From NCBI GenBank assembly GCA_015522685.1, contig WALU01000046.1, positions 1-13,595 of the forward strand: a DNA stretch of 13,595 nt. The letters run 5' to 3'. This document shows positions 746 to 13,595 of this stretch, piece after piece. Source of the DNA: Thermoproteota archaeon (GTDB lineage Archaea > Korarchaeota > Korarchaeia > Korarchaeales > Korarchaeaceae). Numbering within the stretch: position 1 is the stretch's first letter; the number at the start of each line of letters is the position of its first letter. A model generated the notes under the pieces. That model worked only from the letters and a program-made list of their open reading frames with translations, had not been told where the DNA came from and made no database searches. Made by a program: the position numbers and the translations under genes.

Positions 746-1888
746 ATGAAGTTGGAGAAGATCAGGACATTCCTGTTGATAATCTTCTTATCATCTCTAA
801 TAACTGCGACCCTGATATCCTCAAGTGCCGCAGAAAATTCAAGTGAACTCACAGCTACTACTCTTATATCCCTTTATAAGGGAGCTAGGATAGATCTACT
901 GAATACTCTCAATGCTTATTTCAATGTGTCAACGGCTTCTAGTGGAGGTAACGCATCGATCAATGCTAATGCATCCGGATCCTCAAATGAAACCGTATCT
1001 GGATCTGGAGTGGAAGTCAGTGCTAATGCTGCGGTATCGATCAATGCTAATGCATCCGGATCTAGTATGGCTGTAAATGCATCCTTCTGCACTAACATAT
1101 ATGAGACCACTTTAGGCTATGTAAAACAAGCTGATCAATATATTGAGGCTGCAGAGGCAAATATTAAAGCAGGCAATTATAATATAGCTGCCCATCAGGC
1201 TCTTAAATCCCTCAATATACTAGGTAAAGCATATGTACATCTTACGCATTGCATAGAAATGCAGAAGCAGTCAGCAAGCAGTTCATTGGGCAACGCTACG
1301 GGACTAGCTAATGGTCATGTAGCAGCGGGACTTATGTCTGCCATACTTAGACATGAGATGAGACTGAGCAGACTCAGAGCAGTACTGCAGGCAGCAAATA
1401 GCTCCGGGGTTAACGTAAGCTCTGCATGGAATCTGGTATCTCAGGCCCAGGATCTCCTCTCCAAGGCGAAGGATTTAGTCACGGAAGGAAACTCAAGTGC
1501 TAGTAATATAATGGCTGAGGCTAATAGAATTACAGCTCAAATAGTGAGAACTCTCAAAGCAGGATCTATAGAAGCTATTGAGCATGGTAAATGGCGTGTT
1601 AGGGGAAACAGGAGCATAATGAACATAAACATGAGCAAATCGTATGCTCATCATGGCCAGAATCATAGTAAGAATGCAACTTGGAAGGGCAACTACACCT
1701 CTGGAGCCAAGGGCGAGGAGAAGGGTCATAAAGGAAAGCCTGCTTTAAAGCCCACTTTCACAGCAGGAGGTAATCAAAGTAATCAGAGTAAAGGAAAGGG
1801 AAAGAACAGGATGAATGGAAGCACGTGGGAAAATGGAAACGGAGAGAGGCACAGGAGGTTTAACGGGAATAACTCCTTCGCACCATAA
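746..1888 (+). CDS. Secreted/cell-surface alpha-helical glycoprotein, hypothetical (380 aa from ATG 746; ORF track starts at 668)
   Basis: MKLEKIR + hydrophobic stretch + SSSAA forms a signal peptide starting at ATG 746. 20 N-X-S/T sequons counted by eye. Ala/Leu/Gln-rich amphipathic helices and a Gly/Lys/Asn/His-rich low-complexity tail. Confidence 0.8.
   Translation: MKLEKIRTFLLIIFLSSLITATLISSSAAENSSELTATTLISLYKGARIDLLNTLNAYFNVSTASSGGNASINANASGSSNETVSGSGVEVSANAAVSINANASGSSMAVNASFCTNIYETTLGYVKQADQYIEAAEANIKAGNYNIAAHQALKSLNILGKAYVHLTHCIEMQKQSASSSLGNATGLANGHVAAGLMSAILRHEMRLSRLRAVLQAANSSGVNVSSAWNLVSQAQDLLSKAKDLVTEGNSSASNIMAEANRITAQIVRTLKAGSIEAIEHGKWRVRGNRSIMNINMSKSYAHHGQNHSKNATWKGNYTSGAKGEEKGHKGKPALKPTFTAGGNQSNQSKGKGKNRMNGSTWENGNGERHRRFNGNNSFAP
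955..1062 (+). repeat. 27-bp exact direct repeat (955-981 and 1036-1062) encoding SINANASGS
   Basis: ATCGATCAATGCTAATGCATCCGGATC occurs twice, 81 nt apart and in frame. Confidence 0.9.
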
Positions 1889-3887: not shown

Positions 3888-4253
3888 TTAGACTTCTAGG
3901 ATGATATCTCTCAACTTCTCGGCAGTCCTGACATAGAACTCAGCCATTTCCTTACTGAAAGATATAGGTCTATGGTCAGCTATCTTTCTAGCCTCAAATA
4001 AAGCCATATATTCATCTTTCAATTCTTTAGCCTTCTTCTCCCCTAATTTCCTCGAGAGAACTTTCATGAGGGCATTAGCAATTTTATCATCCTTCTTAGT
4101 CTTGAGACCCTTTAATATTGATTCTGCTGCTAATCTAACTGAGAAGTACGCAGCACTCACAGCTTTATTGTAGCAGCCTACCTCTAGATCCTTTAGAGAC
4201 TCTCCCATCAGTTCATCGGATTTTGACCTCAGATCCAGCAACTCTCGTGCCAC
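3888..4253 (-). CDS. HEPN domain protein (UPF0332-like), putative toxin
   Basis: 121 aa, all helical. 'G.YNKAVSAAYFS' N-terminal HEPN motif and R-X4-H motif (RKIADH). Overlaps the upstream small gene by 41 bp. Confidence 0.85.
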   Translation of the reverse strand: MARELLDLRSKSDELMGESLKDLEVGCYNKAVSAAYFSVRLAAESILKGLKTKKDDKIANALMKVLSRKLGEKKAKELKDEYMALFEARKIADHRPISFSKEMAEFYVRTAEKLRDIILEV

Positions 4254-4533
4254 CCCTCAAGAAAAATGCTTCCACTGCCTCTCTATCTTCCTTCGGAACT
4301 ACCAGAGGACTTACCTCATCAGGCGCTAGGGAAGCTACCTCCCTGAGATCACCCTGCTTAAGCTTATCGAGCATCACAAGAACATTAGAGTCATAGAGGG
4401 AGTCCTCAGGTGATGGAAGAGCTATAACCGAGACTAGTCTATCCTTAAAGGAATCCTCAAGCCTTGATATGAACTTCTGTACCTTCAGTCTCCACTCTCT
4501 TGGTGACCTAAGATTAACAGCAACTGAATACAT
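4213..4533 (-). CDS. Minimal nucleotidyltransferase (MNT)-fold protein with degenerate active site, putative antitoxin
   Basis: About 106 aa with MNT-like topology (FKDRLVSVIAL…DSNVLVML…VSPLVV) directly upstream of HEPN. The canonical GS…DxD motif is replaced by LPSPEDSLYDSN. The start is ATG 4533 or GTG 4536. Confidence 0.7.
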   Translation of the reverse strand: MYSVAVNLRSPREWRLKVQKFISRLEDSFKDRLVSVIALPSPEDSLYDSNVLVMLDKLKQGDLREVASLAPDEVSPLVVPKEDREAVEAFFLRGGTRVAGSEVKIR

Positions 4534-4696
4534 CACCTTCTATAGATTGCTGAATTAATAATGCTTCTGTATGAGTAGAATTCTAGTATTAATCCTATCC
4601 TATTACATATCATAGCACTTTTGCATAGTTCTAATCTAGTATATCACGAGTATAATATTGCACAGTATGCTAGCCTATATAGCAAAGTTAAAGCCT

Positions 4697-7675
4697 TTAG
4701 CTGGCTGATCTGCTACTCCTTTCATTGAATTCTTCCTCTCCTCTTTTCTTAGATTTTCTCACTCCAGCAATCACTATATACAACTCTGCTAAGGACATAA
4801 GTATCACTCCCCACCATATAAGATGGACATAGGGTACATCCTTCACTTGAACTAATGCGCCTGAGCTTCTCAGCGTGGAGTTAGTAACGTTGAATCCGGA
4901 GGCTAAATCATAGAGATCTAGTGTATAGGGAGTTATCATGCTCTCTTGAATGGTCTGGCTTAAGTAAGCTGAGGTAAAGAGGGAGGCTAAAGCCAGCTTT
5001 TGGTCTTCTCTCAATCCTTGGAAGGACTTGCTCAGATAATAGACCATTAGCTCATGAAACCCCGTACTCCATCTCCTATGCTTCACCATGGGTGGATTGA
5101 ATACCAGGTAGGTATCCCCAAGACCATTGCTAACAGGAAGAACATGGGCCACCAGTCCATGTATTCCTTGAACCTCCCCATTAGCATCGAACCTTATCTC
5201 CAGCTTTCTCTTCCCACTATTCGCAATTAGTGTTAAAGAGAGTTTAGCTCCTTCAGGCAGTTCCTTGGGAACTGGAAGGTAACCAAGGCAGCGATATGGT
5301 ATTTCACGGGAGATTATCTCGCTACAATTACTAGGTAGTACCTGGTCTATTACTCTTGATATGTATGTACTGTTAGAGAGAATATTTGCTAATCCACTCT
5401 TTAAGGCTATTTTCATGGTATCCGATAATATTGCTCTCTGATTGAAGGCAAGATATAGACTAACGTCTTCTCCTACGATAGCTGCTGGGATTTTTATGTT
5501 CATGTTTTTTCCTGATCTTGATCCTGATCCTGAGAATATACCATTTTCTATCACTAGAGTCGAGTTTGGTATCATAAGCCAGTTATCTACCTTCTTTGGA
5601 ATAGAACGCCTCTGCTTTAATAAATCAAAAAAGATAAGTGATGCTTTACTCACCTTCAGGGTTCCTCCAGCCAAGCTCAGCTTGAGAGGCTCTGAGAAGT
5701 TGAGATTCATCTTGGTGAATGACAAATCTTTGAGAGATATATTTCCGAGTAGTTTTACGTTGCCTATCACCATTATCTTAAAGATCGCTTTATTGCTCCT
5801 AGTGTTTAGGGAACCAACCACTAGTGGATTTGATATTGAAATGATTAGGCTTCCTAAATCCTCAAGCTCCTTAGAGGTATTAACATTGGCACTAATGGTA
5901 TTTACAAACATACCCTCTGCTGTAGACTGATAGGTACCGTTAAGTAGTAATCCTCTCTTCGTATACCTGTAAAGAGCCATTATACCACTTTCCTCAAGCT
6001 TTCTCTCACCATTTTCATACTTCTTCAGGTCCTGGCTGGTATTTGTAAATAAATCTAGCATAATGAGACTAGCTCTCTTATATATCTCAGACTTTCCTGC
6101 ATAAGGTGTGTAAAGGTCAACACTTCCGCCATAGAGATCATACTTGTAATTCTTGAGCATTAATCTCTCATCGTACACTTTCGCCTCCTGACCAAGGGGC
6201 AATTTTACATCCTTGAAATATGATCTGTTGTATGCAAAAGGACCACTAAGAATTATTCCCAGCATGGTTAGAGCCATAGCTGCATGTAGGAGAGATATAG
6301 AAGTCATCACACTGTTTCTCTCCCTAGCGTATATGTAAAGAGCAGTCAATCCCGAGAATAAACCAGCAACAGTAAAAGGAAGGAGAACAGATATCATGAG
6401 ATTGGTTATCATAGAGCTATCTGGGGACCAGATAAGATCTCCCCTGAAAGTTTGATAAAGGAGAATTACAGAGACTATCGAAAGCCCCCCCAATAATCCT
6501 AATATCTCTCTCCAACTAATCTTATTCCCTAGCGTACACATCGGTAGGGATATCAAAAGCAGGAGAGCAAAGGGAAAGAGAACCGGATGGAAGAACTCTA
6601 TGCCCGAGTCCATCTGAGGAACATTCATATTCATACCAAGCACGCTACCTATAGACCCTTCGGCCAGTACCATGAAGAGGATCATGAACATCATAAATAA
6701 GGAAAAGTAAGAGAAGATTAGGCCCATCCGGTAGGGGCTGGAGGTCGCCTTTTTTACTCCCTCTCCTATACCCTTAGATCTCCTTATACCTCCAACAATG
6801 AAAAGAGTAACCAAGGCTAGGGTGATAATACTCGTCATAAACTTTGGCGAGGCGAAACTGTGTAAAGGGGATATTCCCACTCTAGTAACTAGTATTGCCA
6901 AGAAAACGCTTCCAGCAGCTGTCATATGCGTGGCATATGAGAGCTTTCTATCTAAGGATCTTACATGAAAAACAGCAGTTAGAGCAAGCCAAGGCGTAAG
7001 CTCAGACGTCTCCACTGGATCCCAAGCCCAATAGCCCCCCCAGCCGAACGTAATATAACTCCAATAACCTCCCATTGCTATACCTAAGGTAAGTAGGAGC
7101 CATCCAACTTTAGCGAGAAGATCACTGGCTCTCCAATGCCCACTATAAAGAGAAACTGCTGATGCTGAGATAAGAGCATAAGCTGTGAATGTAGATAAAG
7201 GGTGAGGATATATCCAAGGGCTCTTCAGGAGAGGATTCAGACCCATTCCTGTAATAACGGGTTTATGAAAGGAGCTAAAGGCCCCATTTAGGAAGGATAA
7301 AGTTAAAGATGAGAGAATGAGAGCTCCATACATAGAATCGAGCCTTGCATCACGATGATACCTCCCATGAATTAATGCGATAATTGAAAGAACAGCAGTC
7401 AAGAGGAAGAGGCTTCCCCCTCCACTAGACCAGCTGGAAGCTACCTTAAAAATCAGAGGCAGATCTCTAGAAGAAGTCTCATAGACGGGCTTAAGCGTGT
7501 AATCTTGGACTGCGAAGGCAATCAAATAAAATATCCAGTCTACCAGAAGAACTAAATATGCTAGAATGCCTAGCTTATTTACTTTTCTCCTCTTAAAGAG
7601 AGTAAAAATGTTTACTAAGAGAATTAATGCACCAGCCAGTGCTAAAATACCGGTGTAATGCATTTTATCACCCAA
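4697..7675 (-). CDS. ccmF: Cytochrome c synthetase/haem lyase CcmF with large extracytoplasmic insertion (992 aa)
   Basis: WWD motif WGGYWAWDPVET, G.GLNPLL..P...HP, conserved His in FHV, LHSFA and LLHAA, many TM helices, and C-terminal P.V.LIW.G. Confidence 0.93.
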   Translation of the reverse strand: MGDKMHYTGILALAGALILLVNIFTLFKRRKVNKLGILAYLVLLVDWIFYLIAFAVQDYTLKPVYETSSRDLPLIFKVASSWSSGGGSLFLLTAVLSIIALIHGRYHRDARLDSMYGALILSSLTLSFLNGAFSSFHKPVITGMGLNPLLKSPWIYPHPLSTFTAYALISASAVSLYSGHWRASDLLAKVGWLLLTLGIAMGGYWSYITFGWGGYWAWDPVETSELTPWLALTAVFHVRSLDRKLSYATHMTAAGSVFLAILVTRVGISPLHSFASPKFMTSIITLALVTLFIVGGIRRSKGIGEGVKKATSSPYRMGLIFSYFSLFMMFMILFMVLAEGSIGSVLGMNMNVPQMDSGIEFFHPVLFPFALLLLISLPMCTLGNKISWREILGLLGGLSIVSVILLYQTFRGDLIWSPDSSMITNLMISVLLPFTVAGLFSGLTALYIYARERNSVMTSISLLHAAMALTMLGIILSGPFAYNRSYFKDVKLPLGQEAKVYDERLMLKNYKYDLYGGSVDLYTPYAGKSEIYKRASLIMLDLFTNTSQDLKKYENGERKLEESGIMALYRYTKRGLLLNGTYQSTAEGMFVNTISANVNTSKELEDLGSLIISISNPLVVGSLNTRSNKAIFKIMVIGNVKLLGNISLKDLSFTKMNLNFSEPLKLSLAGGTLKVSKASLIFFDLLKQRRSIPKKVDNWLMIPNSTLVIENGIFSGSGSRSGKNMNIKIPAAIVGEDVSLYLAFNQRAILSDTMKIALKSGLANILSNSTYISRVIDQVLPSNCSEIISREIPYRCLGYLPVPKELPEGAKLSLTLIANSGKRKLEIRFDANGEVQGIHGLVAHVLPVSNGLGDTYLVFNPPMVKHRRWSTGFHELMVYYLSKSFQGLREDQKLALASLFTSAYLSQTIQESMITPYTLDLYDLASGFNVTNSTLRSSGALVQVKDVPYVHLIWWGVILMSLAELYIVIAGVRKSKKRGEEEFNERSSRSAS

Positions 7676-8741
7676 AGACTATAATGTATATCCCCAAGAA
7701 TATCAAGAGAATACCATTAATCCTCTCCAGCCACGTCGGATTATTCGTTACTTTTAAGAAAGCACCAGCAGTTCTCTTCGCTAAGTAGAGAGAAATTATT
7801 AACGCAAACGCCATTCCTAGAGATAGGAGAGATATACCTGTTATACCTGCCATTGGTGATCCAATGGCGCTTATAATGGATACATAACCAGCTAGTAGTG
7901 GAAGACTACATTGGAAGGATATTAGGCCAAAGCTGAAGCAGGCAGCTAACAGGCCTGAAGAAAGAAGACCCCTTGTCCTTTGCCCAGGCAGAGGGCAAGA
8001 TCTAGAGGCAGTAAAGATCGCAAGGGAACCGAAAAGTATGGCAGCTATGGCCAAAGCTAAGGTAAGCCCTTTTATCAAATTGGCGACGAAAGAAGCAGCT
8101 ATCACAAGAAGAGATCCTAGAATCACCGTTCCGGCAAAAGAAGATCCTAGGCATGAGGCATAATCTTTCTTTCTCTTGATTCTCCCTACAGTGGCATATG
8201 TAGCGATTATTGGGGCAGAACATGGAGAGAATGCTACTAAGGCTCCTAGAAAGGGAAGAGAGAAAAATGATATTGGTTCCAATTCTCCAACCTTCTTTGT
8301 AGGTGAAGACTGCATAATCCTGAACTTAATCCATCTCCTGAAGTACGAGGCTGGATCCTTCTCTCTCACTGCCCCAACAATTTTATCTACAACTATTCCA
8401 TCCTTCAAGAGAAGGAAGGTAGGGGTCTCAGTCACTCTATATTCTGTGAAGAGACGATCTGTTTTACCTGGTAAAAGAGGTACATCCAAGACCTTTACTC
8501 CTGCAGGTGGCGACTTCTCTATGGACCTCCAATGAGGAAGCATCATCTCACAGGCGGAGCACGTCTCGCTCCAGAACATAACTGCTACGGCTCCCTTCTT
8601 AAGCTGGCTATTCGGCTTAATAGCAGGCATATAAAGAGTCGCTCCATTGCTAGCGAAGGATGCAAGCAAGCCTACTGCTACAGATGTTAGAATTATCGCA
8701 ATCGCTAAAATACTCTGATAGCTTACTCTCACGTATTTCAC
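7668..8741 (-). CDS. ccdA: Membrane-anchored thioredoxin (CcmG/ResA-like) fused to CcdA/DsbD-beta thiol-disulfide transporter
   Basis: N-terminal TM, WSETCSAC (CXXC at 8550-8561) and cis-Pro loop TPTF. Then about 6 TM helices with FSPCSAP and FQCSLP cysteines. The GTG start overlaps the ccmB TGA (GTGA). Confidence 0.85.
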   Translation of the reverse strand: MKYVRVSYQSILAIAIILTSVAVGLLASFASNGATLYMPAIKPNSQLKKGAVAVMFWSETCSACEMMLPHWRSIEKSPPAGVKVLDVPLLPGKTDRLFTEYRVTETPTFLLLKDGIVVDKIVGAVREKDPASYFRRWIKFRIMQSSPTKKVGELEPISFFSLPFLGALVAFSPCSAPIIATYATVGRIKRKKDYASCLGSSFAGTVILGSLLVIAASFVANLIKGLTLALAIAAILFGSLAIFTASRSCPLPGQRTRGLLSSGLLAACFSFGLISFQCSLPLLAGYVSIISAIGSPMAGITGISLLSLGMAFALIISLYLAKRTAGAFLKVTNNPTWLERINGILLIFLGIYIIVFG

Positions 8742-9385
8742 ACCTCCAGAAGATATCTAGCCAGCCAAGAGGCTATCGTGAAGAAGAGAAAGCTCGATAA
8801 AACTATCATTATCACTCCCGAATATTCTTCGGTGGAAAGAAAGTAGAGAGTTTCTTGAATAACCGGTAGACTTAGCACAAGGATTATGGTAGGCATTAAT
8901 ACTCCTCTAGCCCTCAGGAAAACTGATATGGTAGATGATAGAGCTGAAATCACAGATAGATACATGCTTGAAGAGATAGCAAGCAAATATATATAGAAGG
9001 GATCCTCGAGCAAACCTCCAGAAAAAAGCAGGGTTATCACGAAAGATGTGGATATTAGAACCTCCATTAGAATTAGGTTCAATATAAGCTTTCCAAAGAA
9101 AAATATTAGAGACTTGATTGGAGAGAGTTTTATCCCATCAAGTGTTCCTAAATCATCCTCCTTAACTACAGTCATAGCTGAAGTAAATGTAGCTAGGAAG
9201 AGAGCTATTAGCATTAATCCAGTACCAAGAAGGAAAAGAGAACTTTCTATGGGGATTCTACTCAGAGCGAAGCCTAGGAGGCTAGAGGCTGCCACTGAAA
9301 ATATAACAGCACTTCCTAACTCAGAAAGATTACGTATTTCTAGCTTTAGATCCTTCCAAACTATTCTTTTAATCTGAAGAAGCAA
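8738..9385 (-). CDS. ccmB: Haem exporter/ABC permease CcmB
   Basis: WKDLKLEIR start, KEDDLGTLDGIKLSP…FFGK motif, L.P.I.L.L.LPV, six TM helices, downstream of ccmA. Confidence 0.9.
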   Translation of the reverse strand: MLLQIKRIVWKDLKLEIRNLSELGSAVIFSVAASSLLGFALSRIPIESSLFLLGTGLMLIALFLATFTSAMTVVKEDDLGTLDGIKLSPIKSLIFFFGKLILNLILMEVLISTSFVITLLFSGGLLEDPFYIYLLAISSSMYLSVISALSSTISVFLRARGVLMPTIILVLSLPVIQETLYFLSTEEYSGVIMIVLSSFLFFTIASWLARYLLEV

Positions 9386-10001
9386 TTAACATGCCCTCTC
9401 TTAATTCTAATATCCTCGCTCCTAATTCTCTCACATCCGAACTTCGAGGTGAGGTTATAAGCACAGACCTCCTAAATGAGAGCAGCTTCAAGAACAGATC
9501 GGTTAACCACTTCTTTCCATTACTATCCAGTCCCGAGAACGGCTCATCTATAAGTAAAATAGGTGGATCATGCATTAGAGCCCTTATTATATCTACTCTC
9601 CTTCTCCATCCATAACTCAGCTCTGACACTTCTTTATTCATAAACCGTAGAACCCCCAATTCATCCAGTAATTCATCCACCTTAGATAAATTAGGATTTC
9701 CATAAAGCCCTGCATAATACAATAAATTTTCCTTAACAGTTAGATCCCTGTAAAGAAGAGGGGAGTGTGGAACATAACCTAAGGAGAACTTAGCCTCTGG
9801 TTTACGGACATCAATTCCAGATAATAAGACTCTCCCCTTAGATGGTGATGTGAGGCCTGATGCGAGCTTTAAGAGAGTAGTCTTACCAGATCCATTTGGA
9901 CCTACGACTGCAATAAAATCACCGCACTTTAATATTAGATCAATTTTTCTCAGTACATAACCATCGCCGAAACTCTTCCACACGCCCCTGAACTCTAACA
10001 T
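9369..10001 (-). CDS. ccmA: ABC ATPase CcmA
   Basis: Walker A GPNGSGKT, signature LSYGW, Walker B/D-loop LLIDEPFSGLD, located between ccmE and ccmB. Confidence 0.9.
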   Translation of the reverse strand: MLEFRGVWKSFGDGYVLRKIDLILKCGDFIAVVGPNGSGKTTLLKLASGLTSPSKGRVLLSGIDVRKPEAKFSLGYVPHSPLLYRDLTVKENLLYYAGLYGNPNLSKVDELLDELGVLRFMNKEVSELSYGWRRRVDIIRALMHDPPILLIDEPFSGLDSNGKKWLTDLFLKLLSFRRSVLITSPRSSDVRELGARILELREGMLIASSD

Positions 10002-10415
10002 CTAACCACCTGTGGCAGGAGGGGCCTCGTAGGCTTTATGACATCCCTGAAGTATCTCCTCTATCTCCAACTTACCCATTACATTGCCTACCTTAGCAGG
10101 ATAGAATGTTCCCCTAATCACGACCTCCTGATCTACGATGGAATGGGAGGGAGGAGCTCCATATTGACTAATGAATCTACTTAATTCATAAAAAGCATAA
10201 ACTCTATTCCCCTTCTTACCTTGAAGGACGAAGAGTATGAGATTTTTTTCAGGAATGATCCTTGTACTCTCTATAGATGCACGAAGCGTTACCATAGTAG
10301 GCTTCCTATACCTAGACAGCTGAGAAATACTCTCATATGAGCTAGAAGTTATTGTCATGTAGCCAGCCACTAAAATCACTAAGGCTAGGGAGCTGGCCAA
10401 AATGAATCCTCTCAA
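10002..10415 (-). CDS. ccmE: Haem chaperone CcmE, cysteine (CXXXY) variant
   Basis: Single N-terminal TM, OB-fold-like strands (…QEVVIRGTF…), and EILQGCHKAY giving CXXXY at 10029-10043. ATGA overlap with ccmC. Confidence 0.88.
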   Translation of the reverse strand: MRGFILASSLALVILVAGYMTITSSSYESISQLSRYRKPTMVTLRASIESTRIIPEKNLILFVLQGKKGNRVYAFYELSRFISQYGAPPSHSIVDQEVVIRGTFYPAKVGNVMGKLEIEEILQGCHKAYEAPPATGG

Positions 10416-11479
10416 GCTCTCTCCCTTCCTAAAAAATACGCTAGGGATAAGAGAGTTAGAGAGTATATTAAAGCATTCACTGAGTTTCCCCAGTAAGAGA
10501 TAAGCTTTATACTCCTAGCTTTGATCACTCTATCTTGTGTGGTGCCTTCAACGAGAAGCCAATGCTTTTCTAAAGTAAATCTTCTCTTTCCATTCTCCTT
10601 CCCATTCATAGTTACGAATAGGGGATTTATGGGCGGCTTACCGTGATATAATAATATATAATCCTGCTTATATGTGGTCCTCACATTAAGTTTCAAAAAA
10701 TCGTTTTCTATACTTCCTCTCAAAACTTGGACCTTAAAAGTCCCATTGGGATGATCACTTGCTAAGTTAGGAGGGAGTTGTACTGCAACCAATATCATAG
10801 CTACTAGTAGAGTAGGAATTATAGCAGAGATTATTCTTTTATCCCTTCTTGATATCGTAAAATAGGATAAGAAAATGGATTCTATTGCTACAATAAATAC
10901 TCTTGTGATAAAAAGCTCAAGGATCCCTCCTCCCATGAACATTTCTGTCTCAGATGCCGTAGGATGTAGGCTAGGCATTAAGTAGGGAGCTAAGAAACTT
11001 AGAGGTATCGTAGCATAAGCAGCCACAGCAAAGGCCATAGATACTCTTGGCCTTACATTTGGATCCTTTATACTCGATCTAATTGCAAGATATACGAGGA
11101 AAGCTAAGAACATGAAAAGAACTCCGGTTTCTCTAGGATCCCAATTCCATGATGATCCCCAAGATTCAGATGCCCATATTATCCCAGTAACTAAGGTAGA
11201 AAATCCCATCAAAATGCCTGCTAGTATGAACGAGTGGGCTGCTATCTCAAAACGGGATTCTCTCTTAAGAAGATAAACTATAGCAAATAAGAAGCCCAGA
11301 GTAAAGAGAAGGTATGTTGTAATGGATATAGGGACATGAATATATAAACTCCTGTAAGCTGTGGGATTACCTAAAGGAACAATAGAAGGGAAAGGCCCCT
11401 CAATTTGAGAGATAGCCAAAGTTATAGCATCTATTAATGAGAGAAGTACTAAGACTATTATTGTTAATCCCTTACTCAC
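10412..11479 (-). CDS. ccmC: Haem delivery protein CcmC with C-terminal extension (355 aa from GTG 11479; ORF track starts at 11590)
   Basis: YIHVP, WWD motif WGSSWNWDPRET, LHP. GTG 11479 follows GGGGGATG and avoids a 68-bp overlap with the cytochrome b gene. Confidence 0.9.
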   Translation of the reverse strand: MSKGLTIIVLVLLSLIDAITLAISQIEGPFPSIVPLGNPTAYRSLYIHVPISITTYLLFTLGFLFAIVYLLKRESRFEIAAHSFILAGILMGFSTLVTGIIWASESWGSSWNWDPRETGVLFMFLAFLVYLAIRSSIKDPNVRPRVSMAFAVAAYATIPLSFLAPYLMPSLHPTASETEMFMGGGILELFITRVFIVAIESIFLSYFTISRRDKRIISAIIPTLLVAMILVAVQLPPNLASDHPNGTFKVQVLRGSIENDFLKLNVRTTYKQDYILLYHGKPPINPLFVTMNGKENGKRRFTLEKHWLLVEGTTQDRVIKARSIKLISYWGNSVNALIYSLTLLSLAYFLGRERA

Positions 11480-11499
11480 TAGCGCATCCCCCGAAGACA

Positions 11500-11522
11500 A
11501 GTGAAAAGATAGGATGAAAAAA
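11500..11522 (-). terminator. Possible oligo-T terminator/attenuation site between the cytochrome genes and the ccm genes
   Basis: The minus strand reads TAA-TTTTTT-CATCCTATCTTTTCACT right after the cytochrome b stop. This is the only real intergenic gap in the cluster. Confidence 0.35.
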
Positions 11523-12170
11523 TTAAGAGACGGGATCGTCCCTATCGCCAAATACAATAGAACGGAGCATTTTATAAGCCCATGCGGCATATCCGTGAAA
11601 TATTGCAGTAAAGAGAATCATCATAGCTATTATGGAATGTCCTATTCTTGTAGCTATGGCAGCGCCTCCAAATCCTTCAGGGAAGATATACCCCCAAAAT
11701 GCGTTAATATAAGCTAGCTGTTCTGGGAATATTAAACCAAGCCCACTGAACACTATAGCTATGCCCAAGATAAACCAAACCCACCAAACTAGTACTTCTG
11801 TTGGTATTACCTTCTCAATATGGCGTCCACTTTTCTCATCATATCTTATAGGCTCATCAATGTGCTCTCTTAAGAACCAAGCCTTCGTCTCTGCGAAAAA
11901 GTGGTCAAATCCCATACCTATCCTTCTAAGACCATACCAATTATACTCGCCGCTTGCTACAAAGTAGTAAAGGAAGAAGATGGCTGTGGCAGTAAATAAC
12001 AAGCCTGTTACTACATGTATATCTCTAGCTAATCCATACCCTATCAGATCGATGTTTAATGATTTAGAGAGACTAAGACCAGTTATTCCCTGTATAAGAC
12101 CTTCTATTACTATGAGACAATGCATCACTCTGAAGAGAAGCGTATGTCTTACAACATTAACTCTCTTCAT
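11523..12170 (-). CDS. Di-haem cytochrome b membrane subunit (FdnI/HyaC/PhsC-like, Ni_hydr_CYTB type)
   Basis: V.RHTLLFRVMH start typical of the family. Four TM helices with His in VMH, DIH, IGH and IFH. Overlaps the upstream cytochrome c gene by 14 bp. Confidence 0.88.
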   Translation of the reverse strand: MKRVNVVRHTLLFRVMHCLIVIEGLIQGITGLSLSKSLNIDLIGYGLARDIHVVTGLLFTATAIFFLYYFVASGEYNWYGLRRIGMGFDHFFAETKAWFLREHIDEPIRYDEKSGRHIEKVIPTEVLVWWVWFILGIAIVFSGLGLIFPEQLAYINAFWGYIFPEGFGGAAIATRIGHSIIAMMILFTAIFHGYAAWAYKMLRSIVFGDRDDPVS

Positions 12171-13167
12171 GTTCTCCCCTCGCTAGTTTTGTGATCAGAT
12201 GCACACCAATACCTCCTACAGCTGCACCAGTAAGGAACTTGGCCCATGTATCAATAGGCGTACCAAAGGCTGTTTGAAGTTTAGTCCCCGATATATGAGG
12301 TCTCATGTCCTTATGGCAGGATTCGCATTCCAAGAAGCCTCTTTCAAACTGTCCCTGCTCATAGTTCTTCCCTTTGTAGTGGCAAGTTCTACAACCGGCA
12401 GTGTAAGGGGAAAGAGTCACCTTAGAAGCAGCTTCAGGTAAAGCTCCTCTAAGATTTAAGTTCAATAGTTCTACTGCCTTAGCGACCACGTCTCCTGCAA
12501 TCCTCGCGCACCTCTCTGATCTCTCAGGAGAACCACTCGCATAGCCTGAAGTCTCACACCATCTCCCTACAGATACATGGCAGAAGATGGAATGACTAAC
12601 ACTCTGGGGGAGAATCTTATCACTTTTATACTTAGGGACGAGAAACTGATGATTACTTGCATATCTATTACTTATTTCTGTTGGTAATTTCGTCGATTCA
12701 TACCACCTAAATAGGATTTGCCCTATCCTAACCCAATCTTTCTTCTCCTTGGAAACCATTTGGACAGCAGCGCCTGACCCCACTAGGGCTCCACAGCTAC
12801 CTCCCCAACCAAACCCTCCTCCATAACCAAACTGGATCAAAGAGCTCAGCTCTTTCTTCTTCTTGAGGGCGTCAAGTACCTCCTACTTCGAGGGTATGGG
12901 AAGAGTTGTGTATGGAAAACCAACTTTCTCCCTCAGGGCATTTGCTATAGCCCAAAAGCTCCCTCCACCGCACTCGAATGCGTAATAACCTAGATGACCT
13001 AGTTTCCTCGCATATTCTACATCTAGCTCCTCATAGGGCCAAGGGAGCTCCGGGATCTTTGTTCCGCTAGCAGCGGAAAGCTTTATAGAGGGGACCATGC
13101 TACCGACAGCTACGACGGCTAATCCCTTAAGGAAATTCCTTCTACTGACATCCACCAAATAATACAC
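12157..13167 (-). CDS. Tat-exported split-Soret-like (C_GCAxxG_C_C family) dihaem cytochrome c with C-terminal membrane anchor; one in-frame TAG at 12883-12885 (recoded or pseudogene)
   Basis: Track ORFs 12883..13167 and 12157..12840 are in the same frame, joined by 14 sense codons: …PIPSK*EVLDALKKKKELSSLIQFGYGGGFGWGGSCGAL. Tat motif SRRNFLK, LPWPY..LD, Cys motifs ECGGGSF, SCGAL, FCHVSV..WC and ERCAR, CXXCH twice (12379-12393, 12313-12327), hydrophobic C-tail. The true start may be TTG 13158 or GTG 13155. Confidence 0.85.
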
Positions 13168-13200: not shown

Positions 13201-13595
13201 TTCTCTGCCTATCTTGCGTTTTTCGGTGGTTATAAAAAGCATTTTATGCGCTATCGGTTATAACTTAAGCCGTAAAATACAAGGGACTTTGAGGATAAGA
13301 GAAACTCTTTCTTAAGAAAAACTGCGAAAATCTAAATAGAAGTTCTTATAAATAAATAAGGAAAAAATAAATAAATTAAGTAAGATTTTTCAATAAAGCT
13401 CTTGCTTCTAGTTACTACATGGACCAAAACAAGCAAAGTATTGAGGCCTTATGTAAGACCTAAACAAAATAATAAGGCCTGTTTTTCAGTTATGCTATCA
13501 ACAATTGCTGCTGCATTTTGTGCATAATATATGTTAAATATATTCACTTTTCTGGGGGGGGGGAAGGAGCCCATATAGAACTTTTCCCCTTGAGG

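Follow-up and report, generated by a model that had tools for sequence, protein, structure and literature searches.

Only one solved relative was found for the cytochrome described here: Ssc, the split-Soret cytochrome c from Desulfovibrio desulfuricans strain ATCC 27774 (PDB entry 1H21). A report on Pyrodictium delaneyi (PMC8105010) describes the homologue of that archaeon as a dihaem split-Soret cytochrome adjoining a cytochrome b subunit, found by proteomics in both growth conditions. A database search at E ≤1e-10 retrieved 364 proteins, and the best 120 of these include entries from Ignicoccus and Pyrolobus that carry the name split-Soret cytochrome c. Haem c is attached outside the membrane by the Ccm system (System I), of which the archaeal variant has a CcmE with a CxxxY motif and no CcmH.

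A member of this family with one in-frame TAG codon was analysed in a window of 13,595 nucleotides (the whole stretch of DNA studied), which is the complete contig C46 of a 1.48-Mb Korarchaeal genome (63 contigs, 41.8% G+C, 92% complete). A 10-G run at window 13554-13563, which lies about 30 bases short of the end of the contig, appears to be a sequencing artefact of contig ends and not biology.

The Korarchaeal protein shares with Ssc the C_GCAxxG_C_C cysteine pattern and the two C-terminal CxxCH motifs. It differs from 1H21 in an extra stretch of about 17 residues, which holds the TAG and is gapped in 1H21, and in a hydrophobic C-terminal anchor past the aligned part. Pairing of the cytochrome c with a cytochrome b is common to P. 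delaneyi (Pyrde_1256/1257), but the Korarchaeal pair is directly followed by what looks like a full Ccm cluster, unlike the other archaeal split-Soret pairs. Furthermore, the split-Soret genes of Pyrodictium, Ignicoccus and Pyrolobus are uninterrupted, whereas the Korarchaeal gene carries the TAG. As set out below, this TAG is a non-programmed one-base departure from GAG, seen in this assembly alone, and not the state of the lineage.

The interrupted gene

Translation of the minus strand from 13167 to 12157 gave a frame of 337 codons with a single internal stop at codon 95, followed by the terminal stop, in agreement with the initial annotation. Given the base composition of the genome, 341 random codons would contain one stop or none with a probability of 1.5e-8. 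In a search of related genomes, homology crossed the stop (residues 1-336 with one TAG). Since the frame is improbably open by chance and homology runs across the stop, it is one gene with one stop. The start chosen by gene callers is a TTG at 13158, three codons inside the longest frame, resulting in a protein of 333 aa. Features of the gene are given below; homologue counts refer to an alignment of 119 listed proteins, being the best 120 of 364 minus the window's own fragment.

12157..13167, minus strand: split-Soret-type dihaem cytochrome c gene, with putative Tat signal, C_GCAxxG_C_C domain, two CxxCH motifs and a putative C-terminal membrane anchor
13123..13146, minus strand: twin-arginine motif SRRNFLKG, codons 8-15 (PF10518, 22.4 bits against a cut-off of 22.7)
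12970..12972, minus strand: Cys66, first conserved cysteine and the sole one upstream of the TAG (Cys in 117 of 119 listed homologues)
12883..12885, minus strand: in-frame TAG, codon 95; CTA on the plus strand, one base from GAG (Glu)
12379..12393, minus strand: first haem c motif, CRTCH, C259-H263 (both Cys in 118 of 119 listed homologues)
12313..12327, minus strand: second haem c motif, CESCH, C281-H285 (Cys in 117 and 118 of 119 listed homologues)
12181..12237, minus strand: C-terminal hydrophobic stretch FLTGAAVGGIGVHLITKLA, putative membrane anchor, read from the translation and kept in close homologues

For the twin-arginine signal, which is borderline, a precomputed PF10518 match was present on close homologues, and model TIGR01409 scored 16.9 bits (cut-off 16.7) on P0122, an uninterrupted protein of the same cluster. 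Cys125, Cys196, Cys204 and Cys220 lie downstream of the TAG, together with both CxxCH motifs and the hydrophobic C-terminal stretch. Each of these four residues and Cys66 is Cys in 117-119 of the 119 listed homologues. The division noted at first, with the Tat signal and first Cys (SRRNFLKG, Cys66) upstream and the haem motifs (CRTCH, CESCH) downstream, is therefore as described. Because the other conserved cysteines and both haem motifs lie past the TAG, neither half would be expected to work alone. The conserved cysteines include candidate ligands of a non-haem iron centre. From its hydrophobicity in the translation, FLTGAAVGGIGVHLITKLA is likely a membrane anchor.

Tat signals on c-type cytochromes were also seen in homologues P0002, P0003, P0045 and P0059. 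The order of cofactor loading relative to Tat (folded-protein) export is not obvious in this family, as the haems are attached outside the membrane.

Relationship to split-Soret cytochromes

PF09719 (C_GCAxxG_C_C) matched the protein with 36.1 bits, above its gathering cut-off of 27. With phmmer, residues 43-286 matched residues 19-234 of the 1H21 chain (E 1e-25). The equivalog model NF047622 scored 138.3 bits, under its cut-off of 400. Judged from these scores, the predicted cytochrome is related to the Desulfovibrio split-Soret protein but is not its equivalog. Archaeal split-Soret proteins of the same length class (P0074, P0083 and P0089) are 49-54% identical to it.

The name given to one bacterial homologue, P0054, is 'C-GCAxxG-C-C family (seleno)protein', so the annotation of some family members includes TGA-encoded selenocysteine, which differs from the TAG recoding proposed for the present gene.

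Neighbouring cytochrome b and maturation genes

All seven genes downstream of the cytochrome are open, tightly packed and on the same strand; the statement in the initial annotation that they remain open was borne out. They are as follows.

11523-12170, minus strand: membrane cytochrome b, Ni_hydr_CYTB type (PF01292, 43.3 bits), overlapping the end of the cytochrome c gene
10412-11590, minus strand: CcmC-like haem-handling membrane protein, 392 aa (PF01578, 96.6 bits; TIGR01191, 71.3 bits, under cut-off)
10002-10415, minus strand: 137-aa ORF, possible archaeal-type CcmE by position and CxxxY motif; ends GCHKAYEAPP
9369-10001, minus strand: CcmA-like ABC ATPase (PF00005, 106.5 bits; TIGR01189, 120.5 bits against a cut-off of 131.6)
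8738-9385, minus strand: CcmB-like permease (PF03379, 40.9 bits against a cut-off of 24.9)
7668-8741, minus strand: thioredoxin domain fused to a multi-pass membrane part (PF00085, 38.7 bits)
4697-7675, minus strand: CcmF-like haem lyase, 992 aa (PF01578, 62.5 bits; TIGR00353, 117.4 bits, under cut-off)

The cytochrome b neighbour is also present in related genome G023. All NCBIfam Ccm models scored below their cut-offs in the cluster, while Pfam models matched CcmC, CcmF, CcmB and the ABC ATPase. The product of 7668-8741 is inferred to supply thiol reductant in the manner of CcdA/DsbD, its membrane part being named by position. The 137-aa ORF between the CcmC-like and CcmA-like genes ends in LQGCHKAYEAPPATGG; neither Pfam nor NCBIfam gave it a match up to E 10. 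Its CxxxY sequence (CHKAY) is the motif of the archaeal variant of the haem chaperone CcmE, and the ORF may be a very divergent CcmE.

In the CcmF-like protein, the Pfam match covers residues 86-261 only and the TIGR00353 match residues 52-502; in the CcmC-like protein, the match lies within residues 35-201. Both proteins have long C-terminal parts without family match. Elsewhere in the window (3888-4536, minus strand), an ORF of 107 aa without family match lies upstream of, and overlaps, a HEPN-domain gene of 121 aa, an arrangement that resembles a nucleotidyltransferase/HEPN pair by placement.

In a six-frame search of the genome (frames of at least 80 codons), the cytochrome gene was the sole frame with at least two CxxCH motifs. 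Any CxxCH occurred in only six ORFs of at least 100 aa, and the other five had no hydrophobic N-terminus by a crude hydropathy measure. The protein is the only candidate c-type cytochrome of this vent archaeon genome of about 1.5 Mb. Since there is no other candidate, the maturation cluster appears to serve a single protein.

Codon 95 in relatives

Matches to the protein were found in 11 of 41 related genomes, this one counted. Five orthologue places in four of these genomes are full or nearly so, each a single uninterrupted frame; G009 and G010 have two further fragments, which break off before codon 95. Three loci outside the motif pattern (L017, L020 and L022) were left out of the codon count. 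In six distinct orthologue loci the aligned codon was GAG (three), GAT (two) or GAA (one), so that inspection of sister genomes, suggested at the outset as a check, did not reveal a conserved TAG.

In the alignment of 119 listed homologues, the corresponding column holds E in 73, D in 21, N in 8, a gap in 7, Q in 4, K in 3 and G, T and A once each, with no stop and no truncation. Glu or Asp thus occupies the site in 94 of the 119. Because the stretch around the TAG is gapped relative to 1H21, the site is a variable, non-catalytic place.

Codon 95 in the same population

The downstream fragment of the window, P0006 (208 aa), belongs to a 90% cluster with two other members. One, P0121 (91 aa), is the upstream fragment and shares a 31488-base record with P0006. 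The other, P0122, is an uninterrupted protein of 333 aa on an 8801-base record. P0122 is identical to the read-through protein of the window at 331 of 333 positions, the two mismatches being the start codon and a Glu opposite the stop. This Glu is exactly the residue guessed in the initial annotation ('SK-E-EV').

Run X1, a hydrothermal vent metagenome, was the only public run with the stretch and contained 78% of the sampled words of the gene. Three pieces among its Logan contigs cover 918 of the 1011 bases of the gene. They differ from the window at a single position, with C for A at 12885, resulting in the codon GAG. Word depth over the gene was 2.3-7.8 with two uncovered holes, which is very low coverage. 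Logan contigs are not reads; at a depth of 3.7 they establish the presence of C but not the absence of A. Since a contig error restoring the ancestral base is unlikely, C is taken to be truly in the X1 reads. Two other runs of that sample or study, X2 and X3, had no contig matching the stretch. JGI metagenome contigs gave 0 records with the exact 40-base stretch adjoining the site, and no RNA dataset was listed as containing the stretch.

A neighbouring protein of 406 aa differs at 1 of 406 residues between the window assembly and the other public assembly. This protein is secreted and rich in Asn and Ser; its residue 40 is Phe here (TTC, window 785-787) and Leu in the other record, the only other difference among five proteins compared. 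Differences between the two records beyond the TAG site could be real or errors.

Same-frame ORF pairs in the genome

A screen of the genome gave 117 same-frame ORF pairs in which both halves had at least 90 codons. Of these, 46 were dropped, either half being shadowed by a longer ORF in another frame, leaving 71 pairs separated by TAG (21), TGA (30) or TAA (20). The 130 codons on either side of each stop were scanned with Pfam, and a pair was to be flagged when the best stretch of a family crossed the stop. By this criterion 0 of 71 pairs were flagged, the cytochrome as positive control included; its PF09719 match starts 4 residues after the stop, at profile position 13. As the positive control was missed, the criterion is insensitive.

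Reading of the flanks, which was not systematic, gave one extra case with a single in-frame TAG (L064, also L095; C33:812-2560, minus strand). It consists of 201 + 381 codons, with a P-loop (GEYGSGKT) upstream of the TAG and the rest downstream. All eight of its matches, open frames of 259 to 608 aa with 25-31% identity, cross the TAG. One is the paralogue C33:7831-9648; the other seven come from 7 of the 25 other genomes in the search, at a single place per genome. Gene calls start after this TAG on two records (12103 and 7284 bases), and the stop is for that reason probably real. The 12103-base record has exactly the length of contig C33, but the proteins of the window lie on a record longer than the window. 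Pairs resembling one cut gene thus amounted to 2 of 21 for TAG and 0 of 50 for TGA or TAA, a difference that is not significant (Fisher P 0.085) and that comes from non-systematic reading.

At C12:9266-10099 (minus strand; L029), a HepT-like match ends at profile position 89 of 120 and is followed by a TGA and, in the same frame, by a nucleotidyltransferase-like gene. This is possibly a frameshifted HepT toxin gene.

Origin of the TAG

The explanation that we favour, with somewhat better than even confidence, is that low coverage introduced a consensus error or a minority allele. The change is G to T on the coding strand, or C to A at window 12885. The A would then be a miscalled base or an allele sampled at very low coverage, and not the base of the dominant strain. 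Other reconstructions of the population carry GAG and encode the intact, putatively Tat-exported and membrane-anchored cytochrome of 333 aa; on the favoured explanation, the organism would make the full-length protein. Sequencing error, one of the options raised at first, survives on the GAG of the X1 contig and the Glu of P0122. Several points weigh against this explanation. A may be the majority base in another sample. The assembly holding P0122 may be a distinct strain, as the 1/406 difference in the neighbouring protein would allow, in which case its Glu is no proof of error. If the 31488-base record is a separate assembly, the TAG was assembled twice. Finally, C33:812-2560 in the same genome has a real-looking in-frame TAG.

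Somewhat less probable, but still a serious competitor, is a true recent nonsense mutation that is dominant in the strain. The only c-type cytochrome would then be a fresh pseudogene, while sister strains keep GAG. The 91-94-aa N-terminal fragment would hold the export signal without haem sites and the remainder the haem sites without signal; as haem c is attached outside the membrane, the remainder would stay cytoplasmic without haem. The Ccm genes would have lost their only client and not yet decayed. In favour of such a mutation, the assembler did place A at 12885, and the 1/406 difference in the neighbouring protein makes micro-diversity plausible. The other in-frame TAG gene, implied by gene calls in a second record, shows a similar case in the same genome, and the match in only 11 of 41 related genomes makes the module seem dispensable in the genus. 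Against it stand the GAG of the X1 contig and the Glu of the same-cluster record, and also a coverage so low that consensus errors may occur. All seven dependent genes are intact, so that inactivation would have to be very recent, and the genome has no other candidate cytochrome c. A recent GAG-to-TAG change, initially regarded as the simplest explanation, thus survives alongside sequencing error but ranks below a consensus error or minority allele.

Deliberate decoding of the TAG, whether as pyrrolysine or through programmed or leaky readthrough controlling how much full-length cytochrome is made, is very improbable; pyrrolysine and programmed readthrough were the remaining suggestion of the initial annotation. 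The frame is otherwise perfect, and near-cognate insertion would probably do no harm, given that E, D, N, Q, K, G, T and A all occur in the column; the ratio of 2/21 TAG pairs to 0/50 others also leans this way, at the P value given above. However, the search for pyl genes gave nothing over cut-off in this 92% complete genome. The best scores were 19.4 bits for PylS (TIGR02367, cut-off 178.15), 34.3 for PylC (TIGR03909, cut-off 248.3) and 22.7 for PylD (TIGR03911, cut-off 150.05), and PylB (TIGR03910, cut-off 348) had no match; each model passes its cut-off in 1 of 14 control genomes. ARAGORN found no tRNA with a CUA, UUA or UCA anticodon among 40 tRNAs (27 with the intron option), a negative that is weak alone because the set is incomplete, tRNA-Trp not being found either. 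TAG is moreover a common stop: in 945 ORFs of at least 200 codons it ends 222 (23.5%), next to 370 for TGA and 353 for TAA. Its share is the same between neighbouring ORFs in one frame, of which it separates 43 of 164 pairs. Folding of the stop with the 117 bases downstream gave a z of -0.52 relative to shuffled sequences and nothing PYLIS-like, and Rfam at gathering thresholds gave 0 matches in the window. The site itself is gapped relative to 1H21 and not catalytic, and its codon is GAG, GAT or GAA in relatives and encodes Glu in the same population.

A milder form of this proposal is that TAG is slightly leaky in this uncultured vent archaeon, near-cognate readthrough keeping both the cytochrome c and the AAA-like ATPase of C33 partly functional. 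This would explain the intact seven-gene maturation cluster, and we hold it to be just as improbable as deliberate decoding.

That the gene is naturally split into two polypeptides acting together can practically be dismissed. Both parts are open and were called by gene callers (P0121, 91 aa; P0006, 208 aa), but each of the five archaeal orthologue places that are full or nearly full is one frame, the 119 listed homologues are single proteins running across the site, apart from 7 with a gap in the column, the second part has no signal although haem c is attached outside the membrane, and the first start codon past the TAG lies 14 codons downstream.

Significance and comparison with known systems

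When a low-coverage metagenome-assembled genome shows one in-frame stop, recoding should not be concluded before population records and reads have been checked; here, such checks restore a plain Glu codon. For annotation, the value of the locus lies in a sole candidate c-type cytochrome that heads its own cytochrome b and Ccm cluster. Cells that truly carry the TAG, if there are any, would have the whole module cleanly knocked out by nature, which would be of modest interest for population genomics and of none for the biology of the genetic code.

The gene resembles the pyrrolysine genes (mtmB, mtbB and mttB, with pylTSBCD) only in having one in-frame TAG in an otherwise open frame. It differs from those systems in that the searches gave neither pyl genes nor a tRNA-CUA, TAG often serves as a stop, and the in-frame TAG is conserved neither in orthologues nor even within the population. 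By comparison, it is like the nonsense differences of low-coverage metagenome-assembled genomes in being a single-base change, with a sense codon in relatives, confined to one assembly. It is an ordinary mutation or assembly error and not a special reading of the code. The TAG at codon 95 belongs with these consensus errors or segregating loss-of-function alleles, and nothing sets it apart from them.
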